DNA of 64,000 bases from a virus. Shown here in pieces: positions 272 to 53,760 of the stretch. The DNA is taken from positions 1-64,000 of IMG/VR virus record IMGVR_UViG_3300022932_000015; one strand, given 5' to 3'. Below the pieces are notes generated by a model. The model had not been told where the DNA came from and ran no database searches. It saw only the letters and a list, made by a program, of their open reading frames with translations. Every line of letters begins with the position of its first letter. Position 1 is the first letter of the stretch. The position numbers and the translations under genes are program-made.

Positions 272-3200
272 ATGCCTGTAAATCCAAAAAAATTATCAAG
301 TCTTTCAGAGAGACTTGGAGAAACTTCTACTACTCTTACTACTGACTTATTAAAGAATAGATTAGCAGAATCTAATACTTATGTAGGGAACATTGCACCT
401 ACATACGGTGAATCTCAATATGATGAGAGTGCTCCAGTACCTTCAGTTTTAGAAGGAAGCTTAGAAGATTATAGAGGAGAAGTTCAAACTAGGTTGGATA
501 AGATGGCTAATGCTGTTCCTAGACTTTTATCAAAGGTAGGTACTGAAATAGCTAAGACTCCAGGATATGTGTATGCTTTAGGAGAATCAGGTTTAACTGA
601 CAAAACCTTAGCAGAATCTTTAGACAATGCATGGTTAAATAATTTAGACAAATTTGATCAATCTGTTAAAAAGCAATTTGAAATTTATAAACCTAAGTCT
701 GTAAGAGAAGGTAATATATGGGATAATTTAACTTCAACTTCTTTCTGGACAGATGAAGGTGTTGATGGAGCAGGATTTTTATTATCTATGATAGCTCCTG
801 GAGCTGCATTGAAAGCAACAGGCATTGCAGGCAAGCTAGCTAAGTTACCTGTACTAAGTAAAATAGGAGCTTCTAATATTGAATTAGGGCAAGCTACATT
901 ATTAAATACTTCATTAGAATCAGCAGCTGAAGCAAAAGGTATTGTTGATAACTTGAAAGAACAATTTAATGGATTATTAAATCCAGACTCCCCAACTTAT
1001 AATCCTATAAATCCTAAGACAGGTGAAACTTGGACTAAAGAAGAGGTGAATAATGCTATTGGCGAAGCTGGGGTTAGTACATTTCAAATGAATATGGGCT
1101 TATTATTAGTTCCAAATATCATTATGAATAAGAATCTACTAGGTAGATTTAATAATTCAAAAACTATACTCGATGAATTTAAAGATGCTACTGGTAAATT
1201 TGTTACTACAAACCCTATAGTTAAGAAATCTTTAGTAAAAGAATACTCAAAAGGTATTGGAGAAGCTGCATTATCAGAAGGATTTCTAGAGGAAGCTGGA
1301 CAAACAACTATAGAGAACTACAACAAAAAAGTAGCACTTAACCAAACTAATGGTGAAGTGTTAACAGGATTGGCTTCTGAGTATTTAGAAACATTAGCTT
1401 CAACAGAAGGGCAGAAAGCTATTTTGCTTGGTTCTGTGTTAGGTAGTTTAGGTGGAGCTACTGGTAAATCTAGACAATTAAAGCAAGATAATATAACAAG
1501 ATCTAAACTTACTGATCTTATTAATGATAACTTTGAAGGTTTTAGTGTTTCAATGGATAATATTATTGATAAAGATGAGCAGGGGAATGTCATTATAGAT
1601 CCTGAGACTAATAGCCCTAAGATAAATGTTAATGAAGCTACCAAAGTAGTTTCTAACCTAGTTAAAGAACAACAATCTACAAACCTTCAGGATCTAGAAG
1701 CTCTTAAAGGTAATAAAGATTTATATGATTACATTTTTAATCAACAACTATCCAGATTTGCTATACCTTATCTTCAACAAGAAGGTGGAGAGGAAATATT
1801 AAATCAACATATTGACAATCTATCTAAAGATTTAACAAAGGCCAATCAGAACAATTTTCAAGAGAATGAGTTCAAGGGACAAATTAAGTCTCAAATAAAG
1901 GATTTGAAATCTGTCTACACTGGATTAGTAGACACTATAAATAATTTACCATTAGAACAACTATCTAATAACTATGAGCTAGTTGGTAAATTTAGTGATA
2001 AATTGCTAAATACTGCTTACCAAGAATCAAGCAAACAATTATTTCTAACAAAAAAGATTAAGGAATTAAGTAATCAATTACTTTCTATAAGAGCTACAGC
2101 TCAAGAAAATGTATCTCAATTTAATATTGAAGCAGAAAAATTAACTAATCGTATAGAATCTCTGAATCAATCTTTAGAAATATCTAAAGAAAACTATAAT
2201 GCTATCTTTGATCCAGAACAACAAAAAGCTGCATTTGAAGACTTTAGTGTACAGGAAGAAGAAAATGAACCTGAAGTTAAACAAGAAGTTCCTATTCCAG
2301 AAACTAGTGAGCCAGTAGAAGAAACCCCTACGTATACTCAGAATTCAGAACTAGATAATGAAGTTAAGCAAGCTAAAACCAAAGAGGATTTAGATAGTAT
2401 ATTTGATAAATACTTTGATGAAACAAATGGTGAAGAATTAGAAAATATATTAACATCAAGAAATAAAGTAATAGATGAGCAAAATTCCCACTTAGTTGGA
2501 GTAGATCAGGTTAATAGTGTTATAGAAAGTCTTAACAAAGAAGATCATGAAGCAGAGTTAAGAGATATAAAATCTAATCTTGAATCAATAAAAAATTTAA
2601 CTTCTTATGATAATTATGACACTTCCTTCAAACAAACCTTAGAGGATACTTTAGGAAGAGTAAATAACGTATTAGATGATGTTGTTAGTGAAGATGATAA
2701 CATAGTTAATGAAGCTTCTAATAATACAATATCTTTAATTATACAAAACCAGGATATTGAAAGTACTAATCCATTAGGATTACAAGATTCTATACAGAAT
2801 GTAAAATCATTTAGTACTAAAGTTTACAATACAGTCATGATGAAACTTTTTGAATCTAAATATTCAAAAGGAAAAGGATTACAGTTTGTAAAAAATAATG
2901 AGGGAGAAGCTGTTAAAACAAGTACTACAATTAGTATGGTAGTTAACAATCCTAACATTGTTAAAAAAGGAGATGTCATAAGTTTTGAAATAACTACTCT
3001 TGAAGGAGATCAGAATTTAGATAATGAAGCAAATATTGCTATCTCTAAAGAGATAATTAATAGAGATACAGATGATCTATACTCAGTAGCAGATAAGGAA
3101 TTTGGGAAATATTATAGAGAATCTATAGCAATTAGACACAAAGACTCTAATGAAATCATAGGATTTGTTGCTTTGCCTCATGCTTTATCTGAAGTATCAG

Positions 3201-6200
3201 AAGATACTATAGAATCAAAGCAAGCTAGATTGGATATTAGAAATCAATTAATAGCTCAGAGGAAAAGAATAATAGATTTACTAAATAATAATGAGGTAGT
3301 TGAAACTACTATATTTGATAAAGGACCAGGAAAATTATTACTAAAATCAGATAAGGATGGTATCCCAATCATGAGTTCTATTATATCTAGAAATCAGGAT
3401 TTAATAGATGGTAGAGATATATATGTAGTTGACAAAGGTTATGATCTATCTGGTAATATAGAAGGCTTTGGTATCCCTAACAAAGAAGATTTTGTAAAAG
3501 CTTCTGATAGGTTAGCTATTAATGAATTGTTTAGTAAATTATCTGGAAGAACTTTTTCTGATACATCTGGTAATAATAAAGGTAGAGTATTTAAAGCAGT
3601 AAAAAACTCTAATAATACTTGGTCTCTAATTCCTGTTTATGCTACCTCTATTGGAGCAGAAAAGGCAGAGAAGATTATTAAAAAATTAAAAACCTTTGTT
3701 TCACAAGTTGGAGGAGTATACACACCAAACTTAAAAGCTATCTACAGTGAGTTAGGTAAAGATGTTTATATTACTAATACTGATAAGAGAGGTGTCTTAA
3801 AAATAGACAATTTTAAAATTAATGGTAAACAGTGGGGTGCATTGTTTAACAATCCTAGTTTTGAAAAAGAATTATTAGACAACATTAGTAAAGCTAAAAA
3901 TAATATTATTACTCAATTATTGAATACTGATAATGGTATAAAGGATATTTTAGAGACTAATGCTTACCAAGAAGATGGAGAATATTTTGTACAGCCATAT
4001 ATTGAATTTACAGGTATCCAAACTACTAATGTAGTAGAGACTCAAGAAATAATTGAGGAAAAACCTATTAATAGTACTGAAAAATTATCTAATGATAAAT
4101 TAGATTTGCCTGAAGATGTATTAGGACTTGATATTTTAGATGAAGAAGTATTTACATCTAAATCAACTAAAGGAAAATTAAATAGAAAAAATATAACTGA
4201 ATTTCTAGAAACAAATCTTCCTGGTATTACCTTAGCTGATCAAGACTTAGTATCACAAGTTAAACCATATGTAAAAGATGCTGTAGGTATGTTTTATAGA
4301 AGTACTATTTATTTATTTAAGGATAGTACTAATAACACTGCTTACCATGAAGCTTTTCATGGAGTTTTCAGAAATATACTTTCGGTAGATGAAAGATCTG
4401 CTGTAATACATCAAGCTAAAGCTTACTATTCAGCTCCATCTATTGAAGAGTTGAATAATCTTAGTTATACAATAACTCCTGAAACTAGAGCTAAATTAAC
4501 AGAAAAGCAGTTAACTGATGCTTTAAAACAACTTTACTATGAAGAGAAGTTAGCAGACTCATTTGCTGACTATACAGAATTAGTACAGGAAAAAACTCTA
4601 GGGGATAAAATAAAAGATTTCTTTAGAAAATTATTCAGAATATTTAACCTGTTTAAAAGATATAATGAAGATCAAATAACTTCATTGTTTGATAGTATTA
4701 ATACTGGTAAATATTCTGAGAGATCTAAGACTACACAGTTTGATAGAGCTATAACAAGTGAACTATTAAATCCTGCTTATAAAAAACCTGATAACATTCC
4801 TATCTCTGAATTTTTAGATAGAAGTAAATCTATTGAAGATGTATTCTACTATAGACTTAATCAACAGTTAGAATTAGGTCTTACAATGGAGAAAATAAGA
4901 ATTGGTGATATTTTTAATAGCATTAGACAAGACTATAGATCTAAAGCTATAGAATTTAACAAAGTGGGGGAAAAGTACAAATCTGCAGTAAGTACTAATG
5001 TATATAACAACTGGGATAGCTATGTTGAACAAGTTATAGCTAATTTACAGAAAAGGAAGATTAAAATAAAAGTTAAAGATAATAATGAGATAGAGAGTCT
5101 AGACACCAATGGTATACCAGATACAACTAATAATGTTGAAAATATGGATATTGAAAATGTTGAGGTTGGTATAAATAAATCTTATGGTCAAGAAATGACA
5201 GCTATTTCTGGAATTAGATCTGCAGGAGACAAGCTTAAATTGTTTCTTTCTGCTCTACCAATATTAGAAGACAATAGAATTAAAACAGATGCTTATGGTT
5301 TTGAACAATTCTATGATTATGAAAGAATATATTATCAGCTAGAAATTTACTTACTTGAAAAACCAACGTTTGAAGAGCAGTATGATGAAATAAAATATCT
5401 GGCTACTTATAAGCCTGAGATGTATCAAGTATTAAAAGCTTTGGATACTTTAAAAGGTGAAAGTGGAGAGCAGATAAAGAAACAATTTAGAACTAACTTC
5501 TATAAACAACAATTAAAATTTAAATTAGTATTGTTTGAAAAAAGTAGAGCTGACGGAAAATATAGTTTCAAGATAGTTGATTCTAATAGGAAAGATATAA
5601 AAAGATCTATTACTAGTGATTGGACAAATAATTTGATAGACCCATCTAGAACTAAAGAGAATCTTGTTAGATTTGAAAATTCAGAATATAAATTAGATCA
5701 AGATAAAATAAAGAAATTAGTAACTGAGTTTGAGAATACAGCTTTGACTGAAGACTATGCTTTTAACACATTATACAGATTAGGTATTGAATTTAAAAGA
5801 GAAGATTTTTCTAAAGTATATAAATCAAATGAGGGAATAATCTCAACTAATATAAAAAATTACTTAAACTCTTTAGCTTCAAAAGAAGTTACTAGAAAAG
5901 GTAGAGAAGCATTTGAATGGTTTGTTAACCAGCAAGTAGTATTTAACCAAAGTTTATTTACACAATCATTTAACAATACTGAAAATTCGATTGTATATTC
6001 AATACAGAATAACAGTTTCTCTAGTAGATTAGTAAATAAATTAACTAAGGGGAATAATAGTGGATTCATTAATGATCTAAAGAGAGATCCTATTTATAAG
6101 TACTTAAGTATGCTTGAAGCTCCTTACATAGCTAAGAGCTTAAGAACTTTTGCTATAGATGGTTTAAAAGATGGCGTTGGTGAAAATATAGGCAAAAAAT

Positions 6201-9200
6201 ATAGAAGCATACATCCAGATGATTATACAGCTATGGCTATTGCAGCTTATCTTAATGAATCAGGAAATCAATCTACTCAAGGATTAAGTACTGCAATTTA
6301 CACACCTATAGTACCTTCTGAGAAAACTCAAGCATTCCTAAACCAAGGACCTAAATACTTAGGATTCATAATTAATGAAAATGGAGTATTAGAAGAGACT
6401 TCTGATACACAAAGATTTAATAAGATCTTCTGGTTAGAAGCAGATAGAATAAAAAGAGCAAATAAAGATAGAGATTTATATAATTCTGAAACAGAATTGA
6501 TTAATCAAGGTAGATTAGATAAAAGAACTTTTAATCCTAATCCAAATTATCATGGTAAAAATTTTAATGGTAATGCTTACAAATTCAGTATATTAAATTA
6601 TTCTAAGGCTTTAGATCCGAAAGGAGATTTATATAATGCAATATTTAATGAATTCAATAATTCTGAATTGGATGCTTCTCAGTTTTTTGGAGATTCTAGA
6701 AAATTTGTAAAAGAAATAAATGCTGAAATACTTACAATACTAAATAACAAATATAAAAACCAACTAGATAGTCTTATTGATTCTGGTATAATAAAAACTT
6801 CTTCAGAAGGATTGTTAACTTCTAATGTAATAGATCTAGCTTCTTATAATCCTCTTCAGCAAATAAGTGAAGATTCTAAATTAAAAAATCTAGTTGCAGA
6901 ATTCACACTAAACACTAGTTTGTTTAATATAGAATACTCATTGTTAATGAATGGGGATCCTGCTTATTACAAGGACAAGAGTGATTGGGCTAAAAGGTTT
7001 TATCAATCACAAGCTGAAACTAGTAGCTATGACTCTAGTGATTTTGAAGATGGTAGGATACAAATAATGGCTTTCAATGATATTGAAGAGTCTTTAAATA
7101 AAGATTCTTATAATGATATTATTGAAATGACCAAAGATTTGCCTAATAATGCTACTACTAAATCTATTCTAGACTCTGATTATTCAGAATCTAATAGTAT
7201 TAATGTAGCTGATGCCCAGTTTTATGTCAGTGATGATTTATATGCAAAGTTATTGAAATCTCAAGGTAAGACTACGTTTGAAATATCAAAAGCTTTAGCA
7301 ATAGGTAATGGTAGTACTCAGGGTATTAATTCTAGAGATTATCATCAACAATTATCTATTCTTAAAACATTCACTTATGGAGTTCAATGGAATGACAATA
7401 CAGCTAGATATGAACCTATACAGATTAAGTGTGCCGTATTACCACTTACACCATCATTAGTAGCAGACAATCCTTTATTAAAAAAGAGTTTGGATAGGAT
7501 GAAAGCTAATCCAGATGGTCCACAAGCAATGGCATTTAAATCTACTTTCAAAGCTTTACAACCAAGCTATCAAAATATTGAGGATGTAGAGAATTTTGAT
7601 ATAAGCAAGGTTGTTAATTTAGAGGTTGAGAATATGGGTCTTCAAGTTGATAATCCTAACCATGGGTTAGACGGAGAGAATAGTTCAACTAGACAATTAA
7701 AAATGTTATTCTATGGTATGTTAGATAATGAAACTTCTTATAATGGAGTTTTAGGAAAAGATATTAAGTATGAGTTACAACAATTAGAGTCTAAGAATAA
7801 CTTAGAGTCTTTAAATAAATTACTAGATCTTTTTAACAGAAAAGATGAAAGATTACTTAGAATGATTCAAGAAGCAGCTACTAAGAGAAATGCTACTTCA
7901 ATTGTTCAGAAGGTATTTGATATTGATCCAAATACTGGTGATTTTAGATACCCTCTTGATACTCTACCAACTAGACAAACTATAGAATTACTTTCAAGTA
8001 TATTCACTAAGAATGTAGTTTTACAAGAATTTAGAGGTGGTGCTATGGTTCAAGCCTCAGCTTTAGGTTTTCAATTCAAATCTGAATTTAGTAATCTTGA
8101 GGAACAACAAGCATTGGTAGAAGGAACTAAGGAGTTATCTGATATACAAACAAGTTTAAAATGGATAAGGAAGGAAGATGATACTAAAATAGATTATATT
8201 GAAGTAGCTCTTCCATATTACTATTCTGATTTTTTAGATAATAACGGTCAATTTAAAAAAGATATTCCTGAGGAATTATTAAGGATAATTGGTTATAGGA
8301 TTCCTACAGAAGGAGCTCACTCAATGTTACCACTTAAGGTAGTAAAATTCTTACCTAAAGAATATGGTAATGTCATTTTGTTACCTTATGAAATTACCAA
8401 GCAGATGGGAGCTGACTTTGACTTTGATAAGATTTATTTCTTATCAAGAGAATATTATATGAAAGGTAAAGCTTTAGAAGTATATAAATATTCTACAAAC
8501 CCAGAAAATACTGATTTAAGATATGAACAATATATTAACAGTGTATTAAATGAGAACAAGGAAGCTTTAAAAGTTAAGAGAGATGCTAGAGAAGATGCTA
8601 AAGCAGTTAATAAATTAGCTAGAGAAGCTGGAGAAGAGGAATATAAGTATACATTCCAAGATGATATTAATCTATTAGTAGATGAAGGATATATTATTTC
8701 TAGAGAAGATTTTAACAATCTTGGTATTGAAGACCAATTAACTAAAGAAGCTAGGAATAATAGAATCTTAGATTTATATACAGCTGTGTTGAGAGATGTT
8801 AATACATTAAACTCACTTATTGCTCCTTCTGGTCCTGGAGATATCTCATTAGTTTATAATGAGGTAGCTAAATATAAAACCAAAGAAACTCAAGATTATT
8901 TTAGTTTCTTAGGACAATTAGGAATTAAAAAATTATTTGATGACATTATAGGTTTAAAAGGTCAATCAGCACTAAAAGTTACAGGACACTCATTTGTTAG
9001 TTTAGGAAACTTAATAGCAAATGAAAATCCATTTTCTTATAGAGAAGGTGAGAATGTAACTAGTGTTTCTAGCCTGTCTCAGACAGAAAGTAGACAAGGT
9101 AATAAAATAGTTGAAGAATTATCTTCTATGATGGCTGCTATTTTAGATGCCGTTAAAACACCAACAATGCTACCATACTTAAATATATCTTCAAAAACTA

Positions 9201-11080
9201 TTAATATATGGTCTACAATAGTTAGATTTGGTATGGGGACTAAAGTAGCTTCAGAATTCACTGCACAGGAATCTGTAGGTATAATATCAGAAAGATTGAT
9301 GTCTAATGATAAACAAATAAAAGATGGTAATCAATTTAATAACAAAGTAGTAGATGAAGTATTTGATTTATACAAATCTAAATTCTTAGCTATTTATAAT
9401 AATTATGATCCAGGAGACATATCATTACAATTATTTGGTAGATCTTTTAGTGATACTAAAACCTTAAATAATTTATTAAATTCTACCGTAGTTGATTTGG
9501 ATAAATTAACTATTTATACAGGTAAATCTGAAGATGTAGTTAGAAAAGAATTAAAGGATGAGAAGCTATTATTAGATTTTTATCTTACTCAAATGAATGT
9601 AGTTAAATCCTTCCAGAACCTTGAAAGCTTATCTAAGAAATTACAGCAAGTTGACAGTATATTTGGATTGAATAAAGAGGTTGGCCCTACTTTTGAAACA
9701 ACTAATGGTAAACAAGAGGTAATAAGTGAAGTTAATACCTATGAGGCAGATGAGGATGGATCTGGAGTATTTATAGGTATCCAGGATCTTCTTCAGGAAC
9801 CTATTATTAACTCATACATTAATATCAATACTGAATTCTTTAATCAACTAAACGACAGGTTTGGGTTTGCGAATGAATACTATAATTCAATAAAAAGATA
9901 TATTGCAAAAAATCTAAATGTTAAAAATGATAGAGGATTAACAGGATTAAAGCCTAAGGATAGAGACTCAATTAATTCATTTATAACAACATATTTAGAT
10001 GCATATTCAACAATGGCTGATAGCTATAATACTTCATCTGATGAATCAGGCTTCACTGATACTGAGTTAGTAGATGAAATCACCAAATTGAAATCTCCAA
10101 AATTTGATGAAAAATATGAATGGAAGATATTTGGTGGTAAAACTATTAAACAATCTACAAAAAGAATGTTTGAAGAGTCTTCTTTAATGCAACATCTTAA
10201 AACTAGAATTCTAGATAATTCTAATATAAAGGTAATATCTCTAAAAGGTAATAGACTTGAATTGTCTCAAAAAGAAAAGATTATTGCTGATATTAACAAA
10301 CTCTATAAAAACCCAAACAGTAAAGGCTTAATAGAAGGTTTAGTAAATCATAGTTTTAAATATTCAGGCTTTTATACAGGACTAGATAGCTATCATAGTT
10401 TAATTGATCCTGAGATTTTACAAGAAATGGGATTTGTTAAGAATAGACAGATATTAAAAGAAATTATCAATTCAAATAGTGATAATACAATTAAAAGTGA
10501 TATATTTGTAGGTAGATTAATTGATCAACTTATCAGAAATAATGTGAAGCTAACAAAAACATTTGACTTGGATTTAGTAAAAGGAGATTCTTTGTTTATT
10601 AAAACAAGCGATGGATTCAGAGTAAATTATGAAACTACACATCCTAGGAGTACTGAGTTATTTAAATTAGATGATAATGGAGAATATATTTTAAATGAAT
10701 ATATTAGAATATATTTAGATGATAAAGCACAAGGATTTAAAGGTAGTAAATTGTTTAAGCTAGAAGGTAATGTTTATAAAGAAACTAGTAAGTTGGGAAT
10801 ACCAGGACATTTGGTTGAGATAAATCCATTCTTTGATTTACAAAAATCAACCTATCAACCAAATAACTATACTAAGTTTGGTACAGTAGTTAAAGAATTA
10901 ACTCCATCAGAAGAACAAGTAGTAGAAGGAGAGAACAATGAAGCTAATGAAATTAAAGATGAGTATAGTAGCATGACTTCTGATGATATGGATATATTAA
11001 ACCAACAATCATCAGACATAATTAATCCAGATAATATTACTCCTGATGAGGAGTTACCAGATAATATAAAACCTTGTTAA
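272..11080 (+). CDS. Giant virion-packaged RNA polymerase (crAss-like vRNAP) with zincin-like domain
   Basis: 3602 aa; GYRIP...MGADFDFDK catalytic DxDxD motif; HEAFH...EEKLAD zincin motif; crAss-like gene context. Confidence 0.9.
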   Translation: MPVNPKKLSSLSERLGETSTTLTTDLLKNRLAESNTYVGNIAPTYGESQYDESAPVPSVLEGSLEDYRGEVQTRLDKMANAVPRLLSKVGTEIAKTPGYVYALGESGLTDKTLAESLDNAWLNNLDKFDQSVKKQFEIYKPKSVREGNIWDNLTSTSFWTDEGVDGAGFLLSMIAPGAALKATGIAGKLAKLPVLSKIGASNIELGQATLLNTSLESAAEAKGIVDNLKEQFNGLLNPDSPTYNPINPKTGETWTKEEVNNAIGEAGVSTFQMNMGLLLVPNIIMNKNLLGRFNNSKTILDEFKDATGKFVTTNPIVKKSLVKEYSKGIGEAALSEGFLEEAGQTTIENYNKKVALNQTNGEVLTGLASEYLETLASTEGQKAILLGSVLGSLGGATGKSRQLKQDNITRSKLTDLINDNFEGFSVSMDNIIDKDEQGNVIIDPETNSPKINVNEATKVVSNLVKEQQSTNLQDLEALKGNKDLYDYIFNQQLSRFAIPYLQQEGGEEILNQHIDNLSKDLTKANQNNFQENEFKGQIKSQIKDLKSVYTGLVDTINNLPLEQLSNNYELVGKFSDKLLNTAYQESSKQLFLTKKIKELSNQLLSIRATAQENVSQFNIEAEKLTNRIESLNQSLEISKENYNAIFDPEQQKAAFEDFSVQEEENEPEVKQEVPIPETSEPVEETPTYTQNSELDNEVKQAKTKEDLDSIFDKYFDETNGEELENILTSRNKVIDEQNSHLVGVDQVNSVIESLNKEDHEAELRDIKSNLESIKNLTSYDNYDTSFKQTLEDTLGRVNNVLDDVVSEDDNIVNEASNNTISLIIQNQDIESTNPLGLQDSIQNVKSFSTKVYNTVMMKLFESKYSKGKGLQFVKNNEGEAVKTSTTISMVVNNPNIVKKGDVISFEITTLEGDQNLDNEANIAISKEIINRDTDDLYSVADKEFGKYYRESIAIRHKDSNEIIGFVALPHALSEVSEDTIESKQARLDIRNQLIAQRKRIIDLLNNNEVVETTIFDKGPGKLLLKSDKDGIPIMSSIISRNQDLIDGRDIYVVDKGYDLSGNIEGFGIPNKEDFVKASDRLAINELFSKLSGRTFSDTSGNNKGRVFKAVKNSNNTWSLIPVYATSIGAEKAEKIIKKLKTFVSQVGGVYTPNLKAIYSELGKDVYITNTDKRGVLKIDNFKINGKQWGALFNNPSFEKELLDNISKAKNNIITQLLNTDNGIKDILETNAYQEDGEYFVQPYIEFTGIQTTNVVETQEIIEEKPINSTEKLSNDKLDLPEDVLGLDILDEEVFTSKSTKGKLNRKNITEFLETNLPGITLADQDLVSQVKPYVKDAVGMFYRSTIYLFKDSTNNTAYHEAFHGVFRNILSVDERSAVIHQAKAYYSAPSIEELNNLSYTITPETRAKLTEKQLTDALKQLYYEEKLADSFADYTELVQEKTLGDKIKDFFRKLFRIFNLFKRYNEDQITSLFDSINTGKYSERSKTTQFDRAITSELLNPAYKKPDNIPISEFLDRSKSIEDVFYYRLNQQLELGLTMEKIRIGDIFNSIRQDYRSKAIEFNKVGEKYKSAVSTNVYNNWDSYVEQVIANLQKRKIKIKVKDNNEIESLDTNGIPDTTNNVENMDIENVEVGINKSYGQEMTAISGIRSAGDKLKLFLSALPILEDNRIKTDAYGFEQFYDYERIYYQLEIYLLEKPTFEEQYDEIKYLATYKPEMYQVLKALDTLKGESGEQIKKQFRTNFYKQQLKFKLVLFEKSRADGKYSFKIVDSNRKDIKRSITSDWTNNLIDPSRTKENLVRFENSEYKLDQDKIKKLVTEFENTALTEDYAFNTLYRLGIEFKREDFSKVYKSNEGIISTNIKNYLNSLASKEVTRKGREAFEWFVNQQVVFNQSLFTQSFNNTENSIVYSIQNNSFSSRLVNKLTKGNNSGFINDLKRDPIYKYLSMLEAPYIAKSLRTFAIDGLKDGVGENIGKKYRSIHPDDYTAMAIAAYLNESGNQSTQGLSTAIYTPIVPSEKTQAFLNQGPKYLGFIINENGVLEETSDTQRFNKIFWLEADRIKRANKDRDLYNSETELINQGRLDKRTFNPNPNYHGKNFNGNAYKFSILNYSKALDPKGDLYNAIFNEFNNSELDASQFFGDSRKFVKEINAEILTILNNKYKNQLDSLIDSGIIKTSSEGLLTSNVIDLASYNPLQQISEDSKLKNLVAEFTLNTSLFNIEYSLLMNGDPAYYKDKSDWAKRFYQSQAETSSYDSSDFEDGRIQIMAFNDIEESLNKDSYNDIIEMTKDLPNNATTKSILDSDYSESNSINVADAQFYVSDDLYAKLLKSQGKTTFEISKALAIGNGSTQGINSRDYHQQLSILKTFTYGVQWNDNTARYEPIQIKCAVLPLTPSLVADNPLLKKSLDRMKANPDGPQAMAFKSTFKALQPSYQNIEDVENFDISKVVNLEVENMGLQVDNPNHGLDGENSSTRQLKMLFYGMLDNETSYNGVLGKDIKYELQQLESKNNLESLNKLLDLFNRKDERLLRMIQEAATKRNATSIVQKVFDIDPNTGDFRYPLDTLPTRQTIELLSSIFTKNVVLQEFRGGAMVQASALGFQFKSEFSNLEEQQALVEGTKELSDIQTSLKWIRKEDDTKIDYIEVALPYYYSDFLDNNGQFKKDIPEELLRIIGYRIPTEGAHSMLPLKVVKFLPKEYGNVILLPYEITKQMGADFDFDKIYFLSREYYMKGKALEVYKYSTNPENTDLRYEQYINSVLNENKEALKVKRDAREDAKAVNKLAREAGEEEYKYTFQDDINLLVDEGYIISREDFNNLGIEDQLTKEARNNRILDLYTAVLRDVNTLNSLIAPSGPGDISLVYNEVAKYKTKETQDYFSFLGQLGIKKLFDDIIGLKGQSALKVTGHSFVSLGNLIANENPFSYREGENVTSVSSLSQTESRQGNKIVEELSSMMAAILDAVKTPTMLPYLNISSKTINIWSTIVRFGMGTKVASEFTAQESVGIISERLMSNDKQIKDGNQFNNKVVDEVFDLYKSKFLAIYNNYDPGDISLQLFGRSFSDTKTLNNLLNSTVVDLDKLTIYTGKSEDVVRKELKDEKLLLDFYLTQMNVVKSFQNLESLSKKLQQVDSIFGLNKEVGPTFETTNGKQEVISEVNTYEADEDGSGVFIGIQDLLQEPIINSYININTEFFNQLNDRFGFANEYYNSIKRYIAKNLNVKNDRGLTGLKPKDRDSINSFITTYLDAYSTMADSYNTSSDESGFTDTELVDEITKLKSPKFDEKYEWKIFGGKTIKQSTKRMFEESSLMQHLKTRILDNSNIKVISLKGNRLELSQKEKIIADINKLYKNPNSKGLIEGLVNHSFKYSGFYTGLDSYHSLIDPEILQEMGFVKNRQILKEIINSNSDNTIKSDIFVGRLIDQLIRNNVKLTKTFDLDLVKGDSLFIKTSDGFRVNYETTHPRSTELFKLDDNGEYILNEYIRIYLDDKAQGFKGSKLFKLEGNVYKETSKLGIPGHLVEINPFFDLQKSTYQPNNYTKFGTVVKELTPSEEQVVEGENNEANEIKDEYSSMTSDDMDILNQQSSDIINPDNITPDEELPDNIKPC

Positions 11081-11081
11081 T

Positions 11082-14000
11082 ATGAGTTGTAGACAACATT
11101 TCACTAATCAAATAATTCTAGATATAAAGGATACTATAGGAGTTGGTAGAACCTCAGCTAAAGAATTGAAGTCATTAAAGATTCTATTACCAGTAGGTGG
11201 AATTAATAATGCAAATGAAAAGCTAGCTTCTAAAGCAAATACTTACAAATGGGGCCAGTCTATTCAGAAAACTATTAATAGTAAATACAATTCTAAAGTA
11301 TACGGTAATCTTATAGATTTAGATAATAACTCTAATCCCTATGGAACTATACTTAATATTACTATACCATCAAAGCTTATAGATGGTTATGAAAAGAAGT
11401 ATAATCAAACTGGATTAGCTCAAATTTCTAATACTGAAAATCCTGTTAATGAAAAGTTAAACGAAAGATTATCTTCAATCATAGAGGGGTTAGGAGTAAA
11501 AGTCGAATTCTTGGATAACTTTGATAAGTCAGACATAATAGGGTTATGGAATCCTATTAATAACCTAATACAAGTATCTAAAGACAAACAAGATGAGTCT
11601 ACACTTTCTGAGGAGGTGAGCCATGCTATAATTGATGGTCTTCCAAATGATCCTGCAGTTATAAACTTGATAAAAAATATAAATAAGCTAGGTTATAAGA
11701 CTATTTTAGCAGAGGAGAGTAGTGAATATGAAGAGTTATACAACAATGATATAAATCTCTTAAATAAAGAAGCTGCAGGTAAATTATTAAGTATAGCCCT
11801 AAGAGACAACTTTGAAAGTAATTCACCAGAAGTCTCTAAATTTTATAAGATATGTAAGATGATCTTTAACAAGATTAAACTCTTATTTAGATCAATATCT
11901 TCTGAAACTGTTGATTCTATACAAAAAGAGGTAGATGAAGTAACTAATAAAATTGCAAAATCGTTTTTATCTGATGAAATTAAAGAGCTAGACTTTAGCT
12001 ATGAAACTGAAAAAGCTATTTTATTTCAAGTAAAAGGAGAACCAAAATTACAAAAGAAAGATAAATATATTCAACAGATAGTTGAGTTGAAAAGAAGTAT
12101 TGCTAGGAACGAAAAGTCTCTAAACAATATTGATAAAAAATCAGTAGCTTTTGCTCAACTAGAAGAGAAAATTAATTTAATGAAAATTGCCTTACAGGAT
12201 TATTTATTAAATAGTAAAGAAGATTCATTAAGACAAACTGCATTATATCAACTTCAATTGATAAAAGGATTAATAGATGCATATGATTCAGGTCATAAAC
12301 CATCTACTAATGATATAAAAATAGCCTATGATACCTTACAATCTTTAAAGGATATTGTAGGTCTAGAGACTTACGTATTCAAAGCTACAGAAGATCCTGA
12401 ATTAGATGCTAAAAAGTTACTGGATTCTGTATCAGATATTCAAAGAGAATATGCTGTAAAAATAATTCAAGAACACTCTAATGAAGAAGTAAAGCCTACT
12501 GCAGAAGATATAGACGAACAAACTACAGACATAAATAAATTTACAATGGGTTTTGGTACGTTGACCAATCTGACGAATTACATTGCCAGAACTATAGGTA
12601 GTTTAATTAAAGCAGCTCAAATTAGAGTTTCTAAGAAACAAGGAGCTTTATATGAGGAGATTAGAAAAAATGTAGATAATCTTAAAAAGTGGGGTAAAAG
12701 AAACAATGTCCAAGATAAGGACTTGTACAACATTTTTCTACAAAATAATAGAGGAACTACAGTTTTAGTTAGAGAATATACTGAAGAATTTTATGAAGAT
12801 CTATATAAAGGATTTAAAAATAATAATTGGAAAACTTTAGCAACTAGAAATTCAGATGGTACTTATATACCATTGAACTTAAAAAAATATGAAAACCCTA
12901 ACTATAAAAAGATACAAGGAGATAAGGATTTAAAAGCATTCTATGAATTCTATCAGAAGACTATGTCTGAATCAATTGATAGACTTCCAACACATCTCTT
13001 AAAAGGTATGGGAGGAAGTTATAAAAATGGATTTGTAGCTAATATAGGTAGAGATGATTTACAACATTTACTAAATGCTTCAACATTCTTTGGTAAAGCT
13101 AAACAGTTATTCTCTAATATCACAAACATAAGAGTAAGAGAAGTATATAATGACGATTTTATTAGAGATGAGATACTTTCTAAAGATGAAATTCCTGTAA
13201 AATATCTAAAGAAGATAGCTTCTGAGGATAAGTCTAATGACTTAGGAGAAGCTTTATATAAATTCGGAGCCTTTACAATTAGTCATGAAGAGTTAACAGA
13301 AGTATTACCACAAGCAAGATTGCTTGAGAATCAATTATTAGCTAAAAAAAGTCTTGTTAAAGCTTCTAATCCTACTGAAACTGTAAATACAGAAGACAGT
13401 AACTTAGCCAAAATAGTTAAGAAGACTATTGAGATGCAGTTACTTGGTAAAACAAAAGAAGATCAAGGTAAGATCACTATTGGAGATATATATGATGAGA
13501 GTGGGGAAGTAATAGGTAAGAAGCATATTGCTGCTTCTAATATTGCTGATTTTGGATTGAAATACAACAGTTTACTTAGGATTGGATTTAACCCATTCAA
13601 TGCTATAACTAACGTTGTTATTGGTGAGGTTAGTACAGCAATGGAAGCTATAGGAGGTAGATATTTCAATAAGAAAGATCTAACTGATGCTACAGGTATA
13701 TTTTTCAAAGAAATAAACAACAAAGAATCTAAGTTAAAGAAATTATTAGAAGTATTTAATCCACTTCAAGAGTTAGAAGATTATGATTATGCTAAAAATG
13801 TTAGTATAAAATCTAATATTGAAGAGAAGATAAAAAGCTTTCTATATACTCCTCAGAAAACAGGAGAGTTATTTTTACAGAGCAGATCTATGATTGCGAT
13901 GCTAAAACACAAGAAATTTAAAGTTGGAGAAGCAGAAGTCAGTTTTTGGGATATATTAGATGATAACGGTGAGTTAAAAAAAGAATATGAATCCTTAATG

Positions 14001-14720
14001 ACAAAGGAAGAATTAGATAATCTTATTACTTCATTTTCAGCTAAAATTCAAGGAGTTAATTCAAAGATGCATGGTAGGTATTCTCAGAGAGATGCAGCTA
14101 TTATTAATCAGAATATTCTTTGGAGAATGGCTTTCCAATTTAAAAAATGGATTCCAGCAGCAATAGAGACTAGATTTGGAAGTAAACAATTTGATAATAT
14201 AACTCAGGATGTTCAAGAAGGAAGATGGAATACAATGGTTAAACTTCTGTTAAACTATAAAGATACATATTCAAGGTTGCAGAGAGGTGAATTAGAAGAA
14301 TATGAAATTTATAATTTCAAAAAGAGTAGCACTGAATTAGTAATTCTTATTGCAACAATAGTTTTATACTATGGATTAAAATGGGATGATGATGAAGAAA
14401 GAAAGAATGATCCTTGGTATAAATTTACTATGGATCAGTTAGATAAAGTTTCTGGAGATTTATTATTCTTATCAAATCCTAAAAATGTAACTAAATTAAC
14501 TAAGTCTCCATTTGCTATTACTAAACTAGCAGATCAAATATTAGACTTAGGATCTTCTTTACCAACTTTATTAGGTTATGGAGAAATGGATTATCAATCT
14601 GGTCCTAATAAAGGACATAACAAAGTTGTAACAAACATAATTGGATTAACTCCTGGTGTAAAACCATTTGGAGAAGTTGCTAAAATGTTTAATGAACAAA
14701 AATATAGAGAATATCACTAA
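11082..14720 (+). CDS. Large virion/ejection protein
   Basis: 1212 aa directly after vRNAP; helical-looking; degenerate zincin-like EEVSH. Confidence 0.6.
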   Translation: MSCRQHFTNQIILDIKDTIGVGRTSAKELKSLKILLPVGGINNANEKLASKANTYKWGQSIQKTINSKYNSKVYGNLIDLDNNSNPYGTILNITIPSKLIDGYEKKYNQTGLAQISNTENPVNEKLNERLSSIIEGLGVKVEFLDNFDKSDIIGLWNPINNLIQVSKDKQDESTLSEEVSHAIIDGLPNDPAVINLIKNINKLGYKTILAEESSEYEELYNNDINLLNKEAAGKLLSIALRDNFESNSPEVSKFYKICKMIFNKIKLLFRSISSETVDSIQKEVDEVTNKIAKSFLSDEIKELDFSYETEKAILFQVKGEPKLQKKDKYIQQIVELKRSIARNEKSLNNIDKKSVAFAQLEEKINLMKIALQDYLLNSKEDSLRQTALYQLQLIKGLIDAYDSGHKPSTNDIKIAYDTLQSLKDIVGLETYVFKATEDPELDAKKLLDSVSDIQREYAVKIIQEHSNEEVKPTAEDIDEQTTDINKFTMGFGTLTNLTNYIARTIGSLIKAAQIRVSKKQGALYEEIRKNVDNLKKWGKRNNVQDKDLYNIFLQNNRGTTVLVREYTEEFYEDLYKGFKNNNWKTLATRNSDGTYIPLNLKKYENPNYKKIQGDKDLKAFYEFYQKTMSESIDRLPTHLLKGMGGSYKNGFVANIGRDDLQHLLNASTFFGKAKQLFSNITNIRVREVYNDDFIRDEILSKDEIPVKYLKKIASEDKSNDLGEALYKFGAFTISHEELTEVLPQARLLENQLLAKKSLVKASNPTETVNTEDSNLAKIVKKTIEMQLLGKTKEDQGKITIGDIYDESGEVIGKKHIAASNIADFGLKYNSLLRIGFNPFNAITNVVIGEVSTAMEAIGGRYFNKKDLTDATGIFFKEINNKESKLKKLLEVFNPLQELEDYDYAKNVSIKSNIEEKIKSFLYTPQKTGELFLQSRSMIAMLKHKKFKVGEAEVSFWDILDDNGELKKEYESLMTKEELDNLITSFSAKIQGVNSKMHGRYSQRDAAIINQNILWRMAFQFKKWIPAAIETRFGSKQFDNITQDVQEGRWNTMVKLLLNYKDTYSRLQRGELEEYEIYNFKKSSTELVILIATIVLYYGLKWDDDEERKNDPWYKFTMDQLDKVSGDLLFLSNPKNVTKLTKSPFAITKLADQILDLGSSLPTLLGYGEMDYQSGPNKGHNKVVTNIIGLTPGVKPFGEVAKMFNEQKYREYH

Positions 14721-19199: not shown

Positions 19200-19229
19200 T
19201 TATTATGTTTAATATTTATATTTAGTTAG

Positions 19230-19301
19230 TGTTCCCTACAGGATCTGAACCTGTGACCTTCACGTTATGAGCGTGTTGCTCTACCACTGAGCTAAGAGAA
19301 C
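19230..19301 (-). tRNA. tRNA with CAU anticodon (Met or Ile2); CCA not encoded
   Basis: GTTCTCT/AGGGAAC acceptor, GCTC/GAGC D-arm, loop CTCATAA, ACAGG-TTCAGAT-CCTGT T-arm. Confidence 0.9.
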
Positions 19302-49967: not shown

Positions 49968-50453
49968 TTAACCAATCTTCTTTTTCTTTCTAATGTCAGA
50001 GATAACTTGTCTTCTTACATTGTATAATTCACATATAGACTTTATAGTCTTGTGTGGATTGTTTTCAATATCTTTCAAGACTTTTTCTATCAATTCAGTA
50101 GAATACTTTTTGTTTACTGGAATATTACCCTTCTTGAATTTGTATGATTCCATATTCATAAGTGGTAGTCTGCCTTTTTTGTAGGCATCTTTCATGTTAT
50201 CAGAATGTGTACCTAAAAATAGATGTTTAGGATTAACACATAAAGGATTATCACATTTATGACAGACAAATACATTTGAATCATTTATTTCACCATACTT
50301 AAGTATATATGATAATCTGTGACTATCAATTATTCTTTTCTGATATCTTATAACTCCATAATTACCTCTCATTCCTGCTTTCCATTCCCAACAATCTTCA
50401 TCATTATTAGTTACTCTTACTTTACTCCAGAATCTTTCGATTATAGTACTCAT
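49968..50453 (-). CDS. HNH homing endonuclease immediately downstream of tmRNA
   Basis: RFWSKV, CWEW, HRLSY, VCHKCDNPLCVNPKHL..GT..DN; start moved to MSTIIERF outside the tmRNA. Confidence 0.9.
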   Translation of the reverse strand: MSTIIERFWSKVRVTNNDEDCWEWKAGMRGNYGVIRYQKRIIDSHRLSYILKYGEINDSNVFVCHKCDNPLCVNPKHLFLGTHSDNMKDAYKKGRLPLMNMESYKFKKGNIPVNKKYSTELIEKVLKDIENNPHKTIKSICELYNVRRQVISDIRKKKKIG

Positions 50454-50466
50454 TTGTTTTAATTTG

Positions 50467-50855
50467 TGGAGCTGGACAGGTACGATCTGTCGTGTTCCAT
50501 AATTCATTATTAATTTTCTACAAGTTTAGCATATCTTTTTCTCCTAATGCAGGATATTTGATTCTTAATCAAAAAAGCAACACATTGGCTAGTTATAGTC
50601 TTCCTATGTGTGAAGTGGTTGACTTTCCAATATTAGGCTGCTAACTCTAATTCTGCAATTGGGGCAGATGTCAATTTAATGACTTTTGCTGAAGCGCTTT
50701 TTACAACTGCAAGAACATCAGCGATGCCTCCTACTTCGTTGGTTATTACAACATTGTCCGTTAGAACTTGAAACCATAGATTAAAGTGATAGATAACATC
50801 TCACTACTTGCTTATCAATAAATTATTACAGAGTCTATAGCCAACTCTCAGCCCC
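50467..50855 (-). ncRNA. ssrA: tmRNA with 41-aa tag ending ELAA
   Basis: 5' GGGGCTG pairs with 3' CAGCTCC-A (G3:U70); T-arm GACAG/CTGTC; UAACG-GAC resume context; tag frame 50758-50633. Confidence 0.9.
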
Positions 50856-50964
50856 AATTCTTTATACTTTACTTTAATCCCTTTTTACAATTAAGATACT
50901 AAGGATTGTTTAAAGAATTTATTTTTTACTATGTTAGTATAGTTAATATTATGTGTATTAAAAT
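50856..50964 (-). ncRNA. DGR spacer RNA 2 (Sp2)
   Basis: Homologous to Sp1; covarying hairpins at 50927-50939 and 50876-50907. Confidence 0.75.
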
Positions 50965-51027
50965 ATAAGTAACTTGACTATTAGAATTGTAGTTGTTGTA
51001 ATTCGAGTTGTTGAACACTAAACTACT
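50965..51027 (-). repeat. DGR template repeat TR2
   Basis: 63 nt ungapped versus VR2; 15 mismatches, all at TR adenines; AAC/AAT-rich. Confidence 0.95.
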
Positions 51028-51040
51028 AGAAGTTATAATA

Positions 51041-51490
51041 TTAACGTTGAATGATTTTGTATAAATGAGCATAATTCTTACCTACAAAATCAGAGGTTTT
51101 CTGATCTTTGAAATAAGCAACCTGACCAATAGAACAGTAGCTGCTGTAATCCGAGCTGAGGAACACCAAACCACCTTTTTTATCATTCTCATGATAAGGA
51201 TACCATTTCTGTTGGTCATGATCAGTCCAATCTAAGATCCAATCTTCATTAAAGAATTTTTGTACTTGTTTTAATTGAGCAACTGCTACATGAAATTCTA
51301 TCTCTTCTGGTGTGAATAAATTAGAAAAGTGCTCTGATTTTACTTCATATTCTTTCAAAGCTCTACATATACTTGGATAATCAGCTCCTATTTTGAATAA
51401 ATCTGCGGGAGCATTTACTACCTTTTCTAGTTCCATTATTGTTGCTTTTAGCTCATTGATTTTTTCCTGAGCTTTCTTTTTATCTGTCAT
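51041..51490 (-). CDS. DGR target protein 2
   Basis: Contains VR2 (GGLVFLSSDYSSYCSIGQVAY); paralog of target 1. Confidence 0.92.
   Translation of the reverse strand: MTDKKKAQEKINELKATIMELEKVVNAPADLFKIGADYPSICRALKEYEVKSEHFSNLFTPEEIEFHVAVAQLKQVQKFFNEDWILDWTDHDQQKWYPYHENDKKGGLVFLSSDYSSYCSIGQVAYFKDQKTSDFVGKNYAHLYKIIQR
51085..51110. other. Hairpin just 3' of VR2 (candidate DGR target-recognition hairpin)
   Basis: CAAA-ATCAGA-GGTTT-TCTGAT-C-TTTG. Confidence 0.5.
51113..51175 (-). repeat. DGR variable repeat VR2
   Basis: Matches TR2 except at 15 adenine positions. Confidence 0.95.
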
Positions 51491-52434
51491 AAGTATTTAT
51501 TTTTTAAGTTTATACTATTACAATGAGATAACCATCCATTGTAGCTTGCTATTGATTTTTTATTATTATTTTTCCTGATCATTCTTATAAATCTTAGTTT
51601 TATACTCTTTCTCAGTAAAATATGTGTATGATAAGATTTATATCCAAGGAAATCTATTCCTCTAGATTTTACAGGAAATATTTGATAATTTGATTTTATT
51701 TTAAGTTTCAAATTTACATTTAGATATTGCTCTATCAAATGTAATATTCTGTGTAATTCTTGTTTATTGCTTCCCAATATAACTAAATCATCACAATATC
51801 TAAAATAGTATTTTACTTTTAAAGTTTCTTTAATCCAATGATCAAAATAGCTTAAATAAAAATTAGCAAAATATTGAGATAGATAATTTCCAATAGGTTG
51901 TCCTTTACAACTATCTATTATATTACTCAATAAACTCAGTAGATTTTTATCTTTAAATTTCTTGAGTAATAATTCTTTTAAAATATCGTTATCAATGTTT
52001 GGGTAGAACTTTTTGATATCTAATTTTAAGCAGTATTGAGTCTCCTCTTTGTTTTTTAATGCTTTATTTAGAGAATTTAGACCTTTGTGTATACCTCTAT
52101 TCTTTATACAGTTATAAGTATCTTTAGTAAATGTTGATACAAATATAGGTTCTAAAATATTCATTATAGCATGATGTACTATTCTATCTGGGTAATAGGG
52201 TAACTTATATATTTCCCTTTCTTTTGGATCAAAAATTGTGAATATTTTGTATTCTGACGTGTTATAGTTATTGTTTAATAGTATTTGATTTAAATTTAAT
52301 ATATTATTATCATAGTTCTTGTCAAATTCTATTACGTCTTTATTTTTAGATTTACCAATTCTAGCCTTTTTATCGGCTAGTATTAAATTATCTATATCAC
52401 AAATTTTATTATATAAGTTACCTATTCGTTTCAT
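51487..52434 (-). CDS. DGR reverse transcriptase
   Basis: KEREI, DRIVHHA, KLDIKKFY, GQPIGNYLSQ (DGR-type SQ), YFRYCDD, DFLGY; 315 aa with no maturase or endonuclease domain. Confidence 0.95.
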   Translation of the reverse strand: MKRIGNLYNKICDIDNLILADKKARIGKSKNKDVIEFDKNYDNNILNLNQILLNNNYNTSEYKIFTIFDPKEREIYKLPYYPDRIVHHAIMNILEPIFVSTFTKDTYNCIKNRGIHKGLNSLNKALKNKEETQYCLKLDIKKFYPNIDNDILKELLLKKFKDKNLLSLLSNIIDSCKGQPIGNYLSQYFANFYLSYFDHWIKETLKVKYYFRYCDDLVILGSNKQELHRILHLIEQYLNVNLKLKIKSNYQIFPVKSRGIDFLGYKSYHTHILLRKSIKLRFIRMIRKNNNKKSIASYNGWLSHCNSINLKNKYL

Positions 52435-52532
52435 CTTATACTTCTTAAGTCTCTTTCAATAGTTTACTAAAGACTCTTTAAGTTTGTTATCTTTTACCCA
52501 GTGGTATGGTTAATACTAATTAGTCTAAAATA
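52435..52532 (-). ncRNA. DGR spacer RNA 1 (Sp1)
   Basis: Between TR1 and the RT start; hairpins at 52495-52506 and 52448-52475. Confidence 0.75.
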
Positions 52533-52591
52533 TAATAAGTAGAGTAGTTAGAATTGACATTATAGTTGTTCACGTTATTCAGTACCTAACT
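52533..52591 (-). repeat. DGR template repeat TR1
   Basis: 59 nt ungapped versus VR1; 15 mismatches, all at TR adenines. Confidence 0.95.
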
Positions 52592-52604
52592 AAAACATTT
52601 AGTA

Positions 52605-52958
52605 TTAACCTAAATATGAATTGTATAATTTTATAAGCTCATTTGCCATCACTCTTGCTGTATCTTCTTTCTTATAATAGTAAGAAGCAGAGAAGTGAGA
52701 AGTGACACAATAGCTGTACACGCTACCCAGCACCCAACCATCTTCTTTAGAAAATCTAAAATATGGTAGATACTTATATTCATTACCATTGTTAAAGTCT
52801 GGTTCCCATATTTTGTCATCATTATCTAGATAGTTTTTTGCTTTGATTATCGTCTCTAAACTGTAAGATATCCAATCTTTCTTCCTTCTAAATTGATGTT
52901 CTACATATCTTTGATGACCAACTTTAAATAATATTTTCTCAGCTTCTTCTAAACTCAT
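52605..52958 (-). CDS. DGR target protein 1
   Basis: Contains VR1 (GWVLGSVYSYCVTSHFSAS). Confidence 0.92.
   Translation of the reverse strand: MSLEEAEKILFKVGHQRYVEHQFRRKKDWISYSLETIIKAKNYLDNDDKIWEPDFNNGNEYKYLPYFRFSKEDGWVLGSVYSYCVTSHFSASYYYKKEDTARVMANELIKLYNSYLG
52681..52739 (-). repeat. DGR variable repeat VR1
   Basis: Matches TR1 except at 15 adenine positions. Confidence 0.95.
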
Positions 52959-53572: not shown

Positions 53573-53689
53573 ATTTCATTTTTAAATTGTTATTAATGGT
53601 TATTATAATAAACCCCTCTAGGAAACTGGAATAACCTAAAGGGTTTATTATACTGAAAGTAAGCTTAGATAAGCTTTACTTCTTTGTTG

Positions 53690-53760
53690 ATGCTCTACTA
53701 GGACTCGAACCTAGATTAATTCCCGAGAGGAATTCTCCTATCCAGTTAGAGGATAGAGCA
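53690..53760 (-). tRNA. Atypical tRNA / pseudo-tRNA (Glu-CUC reading possible; anticodon arm shortened)
   Basis: TGCTCTA/TAGAGCA acceptor, CTAGG-TTCGAGT-CCTAG T-arm, D-loop with GG. Confidence 0.7.

Follow-up and report, generated by a model that had tools for sequence, protein, structure and literature searches.

A diversity-generating retroelement with two distinct templates around a single reverse transcriptase in a putative distant crAss-like phage

Introduction

In the diversity-generating retroelement (DGR) of BPP-1, the variable repeat (VR) of mtd, the accessory gene avd, the template repeat (TR), a spacer, and the reverse transcriptase (RT) gene brt follow one another, and there is a single TR–spacer module. 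The DGR considered here lies at positions 50856–52958 of a 64,000-nucleotide stretch of viral DNA (the window; positions 1 to 64,000 of IMG/VR record IMGVR_UViG_3300022932_000015) and has two such modules, one on each side of its RT. The two elements have much in common: a DGR-type RT with an IGxxxSQ motif, a non-coding TR upstream of the RT, TR-to-VR differences that are specific to adenines, a TR rich in AAY codons, and a structured spacer between TR and RT, which in BPP-1 is reportedly needed for priming. Unlike BPP-1, the window DGR has no Avd and no recognizable GC-rich initiation of mutagenic homing (IMH) site or VR-proximal hairpin, and its TRs are only about 60 nt long. The target of BPP-1 is a tail fiber, whereas the targets here are proteins of 117 and 149 residues without a C-type-lectin match.

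DGRs with more than one TR have been reported. In a MetaCSST survey, 271 of 948 DGRs were found to have multiple VRs; 79.9% of those had one TR and ∼20% had more, and Stenotrophomonas sp. SKA14 was found to carry two TRs and six VRs (PMC6642488). The zeta crAss-like phages Lera and ct1yV3 contain three TR–VR pairs each, of which TR1–VR1 alone is free of non-adenine changes; the other pairs show 3 and 10 non-adenine substitutions, for which the authors suspect decay, and the phages have both Avd and C-type-lectin tail-fiber targets (PMC12386605). The window DGR shares with these published multi-TR elements a single RT locus, distinct TRs that each have their own VR, and an association with the Crassvirales/Bacteroidota phage lineage. 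Compared with Lera and ct1yV3, it has two clean pairs, a complete covarying spacer for each TR, a cassette on either side of the RT, and small non-lectin targets.

The original prediction for this locus had set its layout apart from canonical one-TR DGRs and from multi-target DGRs, which usually reuse one TR. A near-unprecedented design is not supported by comparison with the literature (PMC6642488, PMC12386605): since multi-TR DGRs have already been published, the layout is a variant and not a new kind of DGR. What is distinctive is that the pairs are clean, that there is a complete covarying scaffold for each TR, that the cassettes flank the RT, and that the arrangement is conserved across a clade. 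The small targets, which are neither lectins nor tail proteins, are less expected than the layout itself.

Two template–variable repeat pairs around one reverse transcriptase

On the minus strand, the locus reads target1, TR1, spacer 1, RT, target2, TR2, and spacer 2 (Table 1), and the coordinates, mismatch counts, and open reading frames (ORFs) previously assigned to it were all reproduced exactly. TR1 differs from VR1 at 15 of 59 nt and TR2 from VR2 at 15 of 63 nt, and all of these differences fall on TR adenines (15 of 22 adenines and 0 of 37 other positions in pair 1; 15 of 24 adenines and 0 of 39 other positions in pair 2). Given the composition of the repeats, the chance of finding all 15 mismatches at adenine is 4e-9 for pair 1 and 1e-8 for pair 2. 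Both VRs are in frame within their ORFs, with the first base at codon position 1, and codon positions 1 and 2 hold 21 of the 22 adenines of TR1 and 22 of the 24 adenines of TR2. This placement of adenines, together with the AAY codons, is standard DGR template design.

One could imagine that the repeats are ordinary duplications in which compositional or mutational bias has put the differences on adenines, with no retroelement involved. The genome is AT-rich (GC 0.288), and A-to-G is the most frequent substitution in both pairs (9 of 15 in pair 1 and 11 of 15 in pair 2), as such a bias might produce. However, this explanation can be virtually dismissed: the chance values given above are very small, the direction of change is always from A in the non-coding copy to N in the coding copy, the templates show AAY codon design, and a DGR-type RT sits between the pairs. 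Moreover, the same pattern is present in more than 100 related loci, and otherwise identical relatives differ in their VRs only (see below).

The two TRs are different sequences, as had been proposed, and each matches its own target only. Aligned at the offset that suits them best, TR1 and TR2 have 26 mismatches in 59 positions (∼56% identity). A VR scan of both strands of the whole window, in which A was allowed to match any base and as many as 10 non-A mismatches were tolerated, returned the two cognate VRs and nothing else; neither TR fits the VR of the other cassette, and there is no third target in the window. The VR-to-TR offset is 148 nt in both cassettes (52739–52591 and 51175–51027). 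We give this coincidence no weight; the offsets in relatives differ and are unequal. The ATG of target2 overlaps the RT stop codon as ATGA, suggesting coupled expression of the two genes. No terminators were found in the locus, and promoter-like sites are present at chance level.

Table 1. Components of the DGR locus, in window coordinates
Feature	Coordinates	Strand	Description
target1 (117 aa)	52605..52958	-	ORF; aligns with phrog_11581-like family; VR1 is residues 74–93
P0 5′ strand, module 1	52599..52610	-	GGTTAATACTAA; 12 contiguous pairs with 52508–52519; 79-nt loop
VR1	52681..52739	-	Ungapped 59-nt alignment to TR1
TR1	52533..52591	-	Intergenic; 7 AAY codons; in-frame TAG at codon 2
Spacer 1	52435..52532	-	Ends at RT start codon
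Spacer 1, P0 3′ strand	52508–52519	-	
Spacer 1, H1	52495–52506	-	
Spacer 1, A-run		-	
Spacer 1, H2/H3	52448–52475	-	
RT (315 aa)	51487..52434	-	RVT_1, phrog_1423; IGNYLSQ and YCDD
target2 (149 aa)	51041..51490	-	ORF; phrog_11581, E 5e-6; VR2 is residues 106–126
P0 5′ strand, module 2	51035..51045	-	GTTAATATTAT; 11 contiguous pairs with 50942–50952; 82-nt loop
VR2	51113..51175	-	Ungapped 63-nt alignment to TR2
TR2	50965..51027	-	Intergenic; 7 AAY codons
Spacer 2	50856..50964	-	No RT gene after spacer 2
Spacer 2, P0 3′ strand	50942–50952	-	
Spacer 2, H1	50927–50939	-	
Spacer 2, A-run		-	
Spacer 2, H2/H3	50876–50907	-	

The reverse transcriptase and its genome

The RT matches RVT_1 (E 6e-18) and phrog_1423 (E 2e-117), and its translation carries the QPIGNYLSQ and YCDD sequences by which DGR-type RTs are recognized. 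Its scores against the group II intron, retron, and defense-associated RT (DRT) models do not reach the curated cut-offs. At the nucleotide level, the gene is 65–70% similar to RT genes of crAss-like phages, among them that of crAssphage LMMB, which has been described as DGR-bearing (PMC7290462). Directly upstream of the RT in cr52_1 and cr56_1 lies a 413-aa tail protein with an Mtd-like (major tropism determinant) annotation.

The window is part of a 94,209-bp virus record that is rated 100% complete. A fragment of the large terminase subunit (TerL) finds its best matches among Crassvirales terminases, at 33–35% identity. Two giant ORFs follow each other near the start of the window, one of 3,602 aa (272–11080, +) and one of 1,212 aa (11082–14720, +). 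The former is comparable in size to the virion RNA polymerase proteins of crAss-like phages; the latter has no PHROG match. A megablast search of GenBank phages gave no nucleotide match over 24 kb, and a tblastn search with target2 gave no match there either. Taken together, the TerL identity, the 3,602-aa ORF, the 94-kb genome (crAss-like genomes measure ∼95–100 kb), and the lack of a GenBank nucleotide match point to a distant crAss-like phage.

There is one RVT_1 match in the complete genome, and thus no second RT elsewhere in it to serve TR2. An RT supplied in trans, by the host, by a co-infecting phage, or by an unrecognized gene, is a very improbable source of activity for the second cassette. 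In other DGRs, the components do not have to share a strand or a transcript (PMC5758913), and remote targets are known, so that service in trans is conceivable in principle. Here, however, the complete genome has its single RT match next to both cassettes, target2 overlaps the stop codon of that RT, and both spacers carry the scaffold of this RT's own family, as described below.

A common RNA scaffold for the two templates

The two TR–spacer modules of the window can be aligned to each other and have conserved blocks in common. We built a spacer alignment of 63 modules, which comprises the window's two, the downstream modules of three related loci (L003, L009, and L082), and the upstream spacers of RT relatives. 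RNAalifold places three hairpin helices over these modules, with compensatory changes in 11 of 12 pairs. Standard pairs fill 95.9% of the helix cells compared with 73.6% after shuffling. The covariation score of 0.718 compares with 0.261 for the shuffled alignments and was reached by 0 of 500 shuffles, and when the partners are slid by 1–3 columns, paired cells fall to 36–49%. All of these values were counted on the alignment that had also served to predict the structure.

The scaffold begins with a closing stem, P0, which is followed by H1, an invariant AAAA.A run, and H2, and H2 in turn encloses an invariant GTA and a small variable hairpin, H3. H1 is a 4-bp hairpin, with TACC/GGTA in spacer 1, TACT/AGTA in spacer 2, and TGCC/GGCA, TAGC/GCTA, or TGGC/GCCA in other modules. 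Both window modules form the covarying pairs, with the exception of one H3 pair in spacer 2 (columns 115/130), which is C-U in the alignment. P0 forms between the 12–13 nt immediately preceding H1 and a segment directly upstream of the TR, so that the TR lies in a closed loop of ∼80–110 nt. This closure is seen in roughly 58 of the 63 modules with many different sequences (GGTTAATACT, TGTGATGT, TATGCTGC, TGCACCGCC, and others), and in both window modules the 5′ strand of P0 covers the target stop codon.

Of the available evidence that spacer 2 is read by the same enzyme as spacer 1, the strongest is that it keeps the family-wide invariant and covarying positions with no RT gene following it. 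The two TRs share little sequence but have the same scaffold, which argues that the scaffold, and not the TR, is the unit of recognition.

Relatives of the reverse transcriptase

Pattern searches with the RT protein matched at least 580 stretches in IMG/VR, of which at least 569 encode a relative, and at least 600 stretches in metagenomes, with at least 490 relatives. The best 80 IMG/VR loci and 53 of the best 80 metagenome loci (those of at least 3.5 kb) were scanned for adenine mismatches. Nearly all of the scanned loci have one TR just upstream of the RT and two, sometimes three, VRs, which lie in tandem small genes ∼380–600 nt apart; about 100 relatives follow this single-TR plan. Five loci (L067, L075, L124, L131, and L132) contain three VRs in three tandem small target genes with one TR; in these arrays, gene duplication expands the targets without duplication of the template.

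The two-sided order of target, TR, RT, target, and TR is present in L003 and L009 and is probable in L082, which has a downstream cassette and an upstream spacer that is cut by the contig end. The layout is therefore recurrent among RT homologs, which a survey of this kind had been proposed to reveal. The downstream cassettes of these three loci differ in sequence, and each shows 16–23 adenine mismatches and at most two others, which fall at the edges of the compared segments. In a quick maximum-likelihood tree, L003, L009, L082, L004, L007, L069, and L012 fall in a 7-row RT clade with a Shimodaira–Hasegawa-like approximate likelihood ratio (SH-aLRT) value of 99. L004 represents the same phage as L009, and the L004, L007, and L069 loci are truncated.

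The sister lineage (L005–L081 and L087–L164) consists of Bacteroidota phages and prophages, with RTs that are 58–66% identical over their full length. It has the same target family (phrog_11581), the same spacer scaffold, and the same placement in a replication or recombination module as the window DGR, but it has a single TR with two or three VRs, whereas the window clade has one upstream target and a downstream target with its own TR and spacer. The contigs of the window's clade reach 63–103 kb, compared with 30–55-kb phages and prophages in the sister clade. Near-identical relatives reveal activity in this RT family: a 2,150-nt comparison of L005 with L006 yields 11 differences, all within one VR, and the 16 differences between L080 and L081 are likewise all within the VR.

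The metagenome relative L128 (AMWB02106297.1; 6–298 and 2079–2343) shows a further arrangement: at a distance of ∼2 kb upstream, its usual TR–VR pair is preceded by a second one, with 15 adenine mismatches. Either a different multi-TR arrangement or a second DGR next to the first may account for it.

Are both templates in use?

We consider it probable that the locus is a real DGR with one RT and two competent private templates. The genome has two distinct TRs, each with its own VR, and a single RT, which makes the element a multi-template DGR. The proposal that one RT serves two private templates is, as far as sequence comparison can take it, well supported by the single RT, the shared covarying scaffold, the clean pairs, and the recurrence in relatives. 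We infer that, in this phage, the RT makes use of each module and that the two are currently active. In the mechanism that we envisage, the RT presumably recognizes the scaffold rather than the TR sequence and would copy either TR into adenine-mutagenized complementary DNA (cDNA). Each cDNA would then replace its own VR only, to which it would be confined because the TRs are ∼56% identical, and each of the two small paralogous proteins would acquire a variant library of its own. The original prediction described this diversification as independent. In terms of sequence space the word is apt, as the TRs cannot cross-home; it is not apt for the machinery, as both cassettes depend on the same enzyme.

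Several observations speak against this conclusion. The nearest RT on the tree, that of L012, is followed by downstream sequence that contains no second cassette. The clade's only near-identical pair, L004 and L009, is identical over the compared stretch, which covers the upstream VR only. Exact 30-mers of TR1 and TR2 are absent from viral contigs, and that of TR1 is absent from metagenome contigs; nor is there a strain-level relative in these collections, the closest metagenome RT among the matches listed being 66% identical. Codon 2 of TR1 (52588–52586, −) is TAG, in frame, and corresponds to TGG (Trp) in VR1. If the adenine of this TAG were copied into cDNA without mutation, target1 would be truncated unless the codon is read through, and within the 64-kb window there is no suppressor tRNA, the only tRNAs being tRNA-Met(CAT) and tRNA-Glu(CTC). 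The genome as a whole has no Avd-like gene (no PF05635 match at E ≤ 1), although Avd is not universal, most zeta crAss-like DGRs being without it (PMC12386605). Finally, no classical GC-rich IMH could be recognized, the TR–VR homology ending abruptly without an A-free GC-rich block; VR-proximal hairpins are not enriched over 183 family VRs (stems of at least 6 at 13.7% compared with 11.8% at control positions); and the lengths of the P0 stems in the window are modestly above chance for AT-rich DNA (equaled in 1 of 500 and 4 of 500 shuffles). The argument for the closing stem rests for this reason on the family-wide pattern.

Candidates for the components that appear to be missing were also considered. 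Short inverted repeats straddle the ends of both VRs and could suggest a BPP-1-like hairpin beside the VR; with no enrichment across the family, we treat them as chance. No Avd-like Pfam match was obtained for small ORFs that adjoin related RTs, and a 98-aa ORF that follows the RT in relatives resembles neither Avd nor the targets.

Some of these points, together with others, would fit a locus in which only one cassette works and the other is a recently silenced duplicate whose VR retains the imprint of past mutagenesis. L012 is without the downstream cassette, spacer 2 stands outside the usual order of TR, spacer, and RT, and one of its H3 pairs is non-standard in the alignment; Lera and ct1yV3, with one clean pair each and others read as decayed (PMC12386605), provide a precedent. 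We regard silencing as unlikely here, however. In contrast to the decayed pairs of those phages, neither pair in the window has a single non-adenine mismatch (0 of 37 and 0 of 39 positions). Both target ORFs are intact, and neither spacer has lost the closing stem, H1, the A-run, the invariant GTA, or H2. In addition, divergent downstream cassettes with their 16–23 adenine mismatches have been retained in L003, L009, and L082. The simplest and most likely history is that the whole target–TR–spacer unit was duplicated behind the RT in the ancestor of the clade and was lost in L012.

Target proteins

Target1 and target2 are weak paralogs (BLASTP, 30% identity over 64 aa, E 4e-4). The core of their family consists of IKTFEDAC, GWxPDWxN, KYxPWF, the VR, and then YAGxQFxxxYK. 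The family matches phrog_11581, a group of unknown function, and no Pfam or NCBIfam model matches the targets. A profile search collected 558 family proteins, all annotated as "hypothetical"; the named organisms among them are Flavobacterium, Chryseobacterium, Epilithonimonas, and Cloacibacterium.

AlphaFold2 (AF2) models were obtained with mean predicted local distance difference test (pLDDT) scores of 93.7 for target2 and 88.9 for target1. The common topology in these models is one of N-terminal helices, a long helix, a β-hairpin, a loop, and two C-terminal helices, and in both the VR forms the second strand and the loop that follows. The VR lies 23–25 codons before the stop. As modeled, the targets are thus unlike the usual C-type-lectin proteins, in which the VR is at the extreme C terminus. 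A Foldseek search of the models against the PDB returned nothing at E ≤ 0.001, and the best Z scores from VIA-align against 48,161 chains were 4.8 and 4.0, the top rows containing no lectin. A tail chain of SSV19 (7xdi_D) recurred as a weak match at Z 3.7–3.9, which is within noise. The target profile found nothing relevant among PDB sequences, BFVD contained only uncharacterized phage proteins, several of them from crAss-like viruses, and the protein atlas contained only unnamed viral clusters. A missing structural match is not proof of a different or new fold.

The genomic setting of the targets is that of replication and not of the tail. The window DGR shares its genome arm with the DNA polymerase and an ATPase, and the DGR of L005 lies between an exonuclease, a single-stranded DNA-binding protein (SSB), and a replication initiator or helicase loader. 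Homologs of the target domain (∼190 aa) that have no RT next to them are encoded by two cultured or assembled Bacteroides phages, LoVEphage (L084; OY725593, 3369–3953) and Versailles (L085; ON453897, 3363–3944), where they are found among recombination and replication genes; the "tail protein" annotation of the Versailles homolog is not backed by its gene context. The DGR of Quimbyvirus resembles that of the window in belonging to a phage of a Bacteroidota host and in having two targets, one of which is non-structural and lies among defense and counter-defense genes (PMC8008677). The Quimbyvirus targets have C-type lectin domains, however, and one is in the tail module (PMC8008677), whereas those of the window are small non-lectin proteins encoded in the replication arm. 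Quimbyvirus is thus one precedent for a non-structural phage DGR target, but the protein there is a C-type lectin.

Other features of the window

Directly after spacer 2, a transfer-messenger RNA (tmRNA)-like gene (50464–50855, −) begins with GGGGCTGA. It aligns with the full Rfam model RF00023 (1–374) at 28.7 bits, below the gathering threshold of 47, with an E value of 1e-9 in a search of 801 nt, and ARAGORN did not call it. An ORF for an HNH_3 endonuclease follows (49968–50507). The tRNA-Glu(CTC) gene (53689–53760, −) is ∼730 nt upstream of target1, and the tRNA-Met(CAT) gene is at 19229–19301 (−); Rfam at the gathering threshold confirmed tRNA-Met but not tRNA-Glu.

Discussion

The locus provides a natural experiment on what a DGR RT recognizes. 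The arrangement suggests that a whole target–TR–spacer cassette can behave as a module that is copied and relocated, and this modularity bears on the engineering of DGRs with several programmable templates.

With these targets, the range of DGR variable proteins extends past C-type-lectin receptor binders. Their family is unnamed, has hundreds of members in Bacteroidota phages, and has a confidently predicted fold, for which no solved relative was found; the replication-gene context suggests that the proteins being hypermutated may have their role within the host cell. Tentatively, one might go further and regard this RT lineage as a distinct, undescribed class of DGR, one without Avd, with its TR in a stem-closed loop, and with small intracellular targets that are encoded in early or replication modules and have a fold absent from the PDB. 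Such targets would perhaps be programmable binders of host factors, defense proteins for example, rather than receptor-binding proteins, and in the clade of the window phage this system would have been doubled by duplication of the cassette, so that one enzyme would supply two independent binder libraries.

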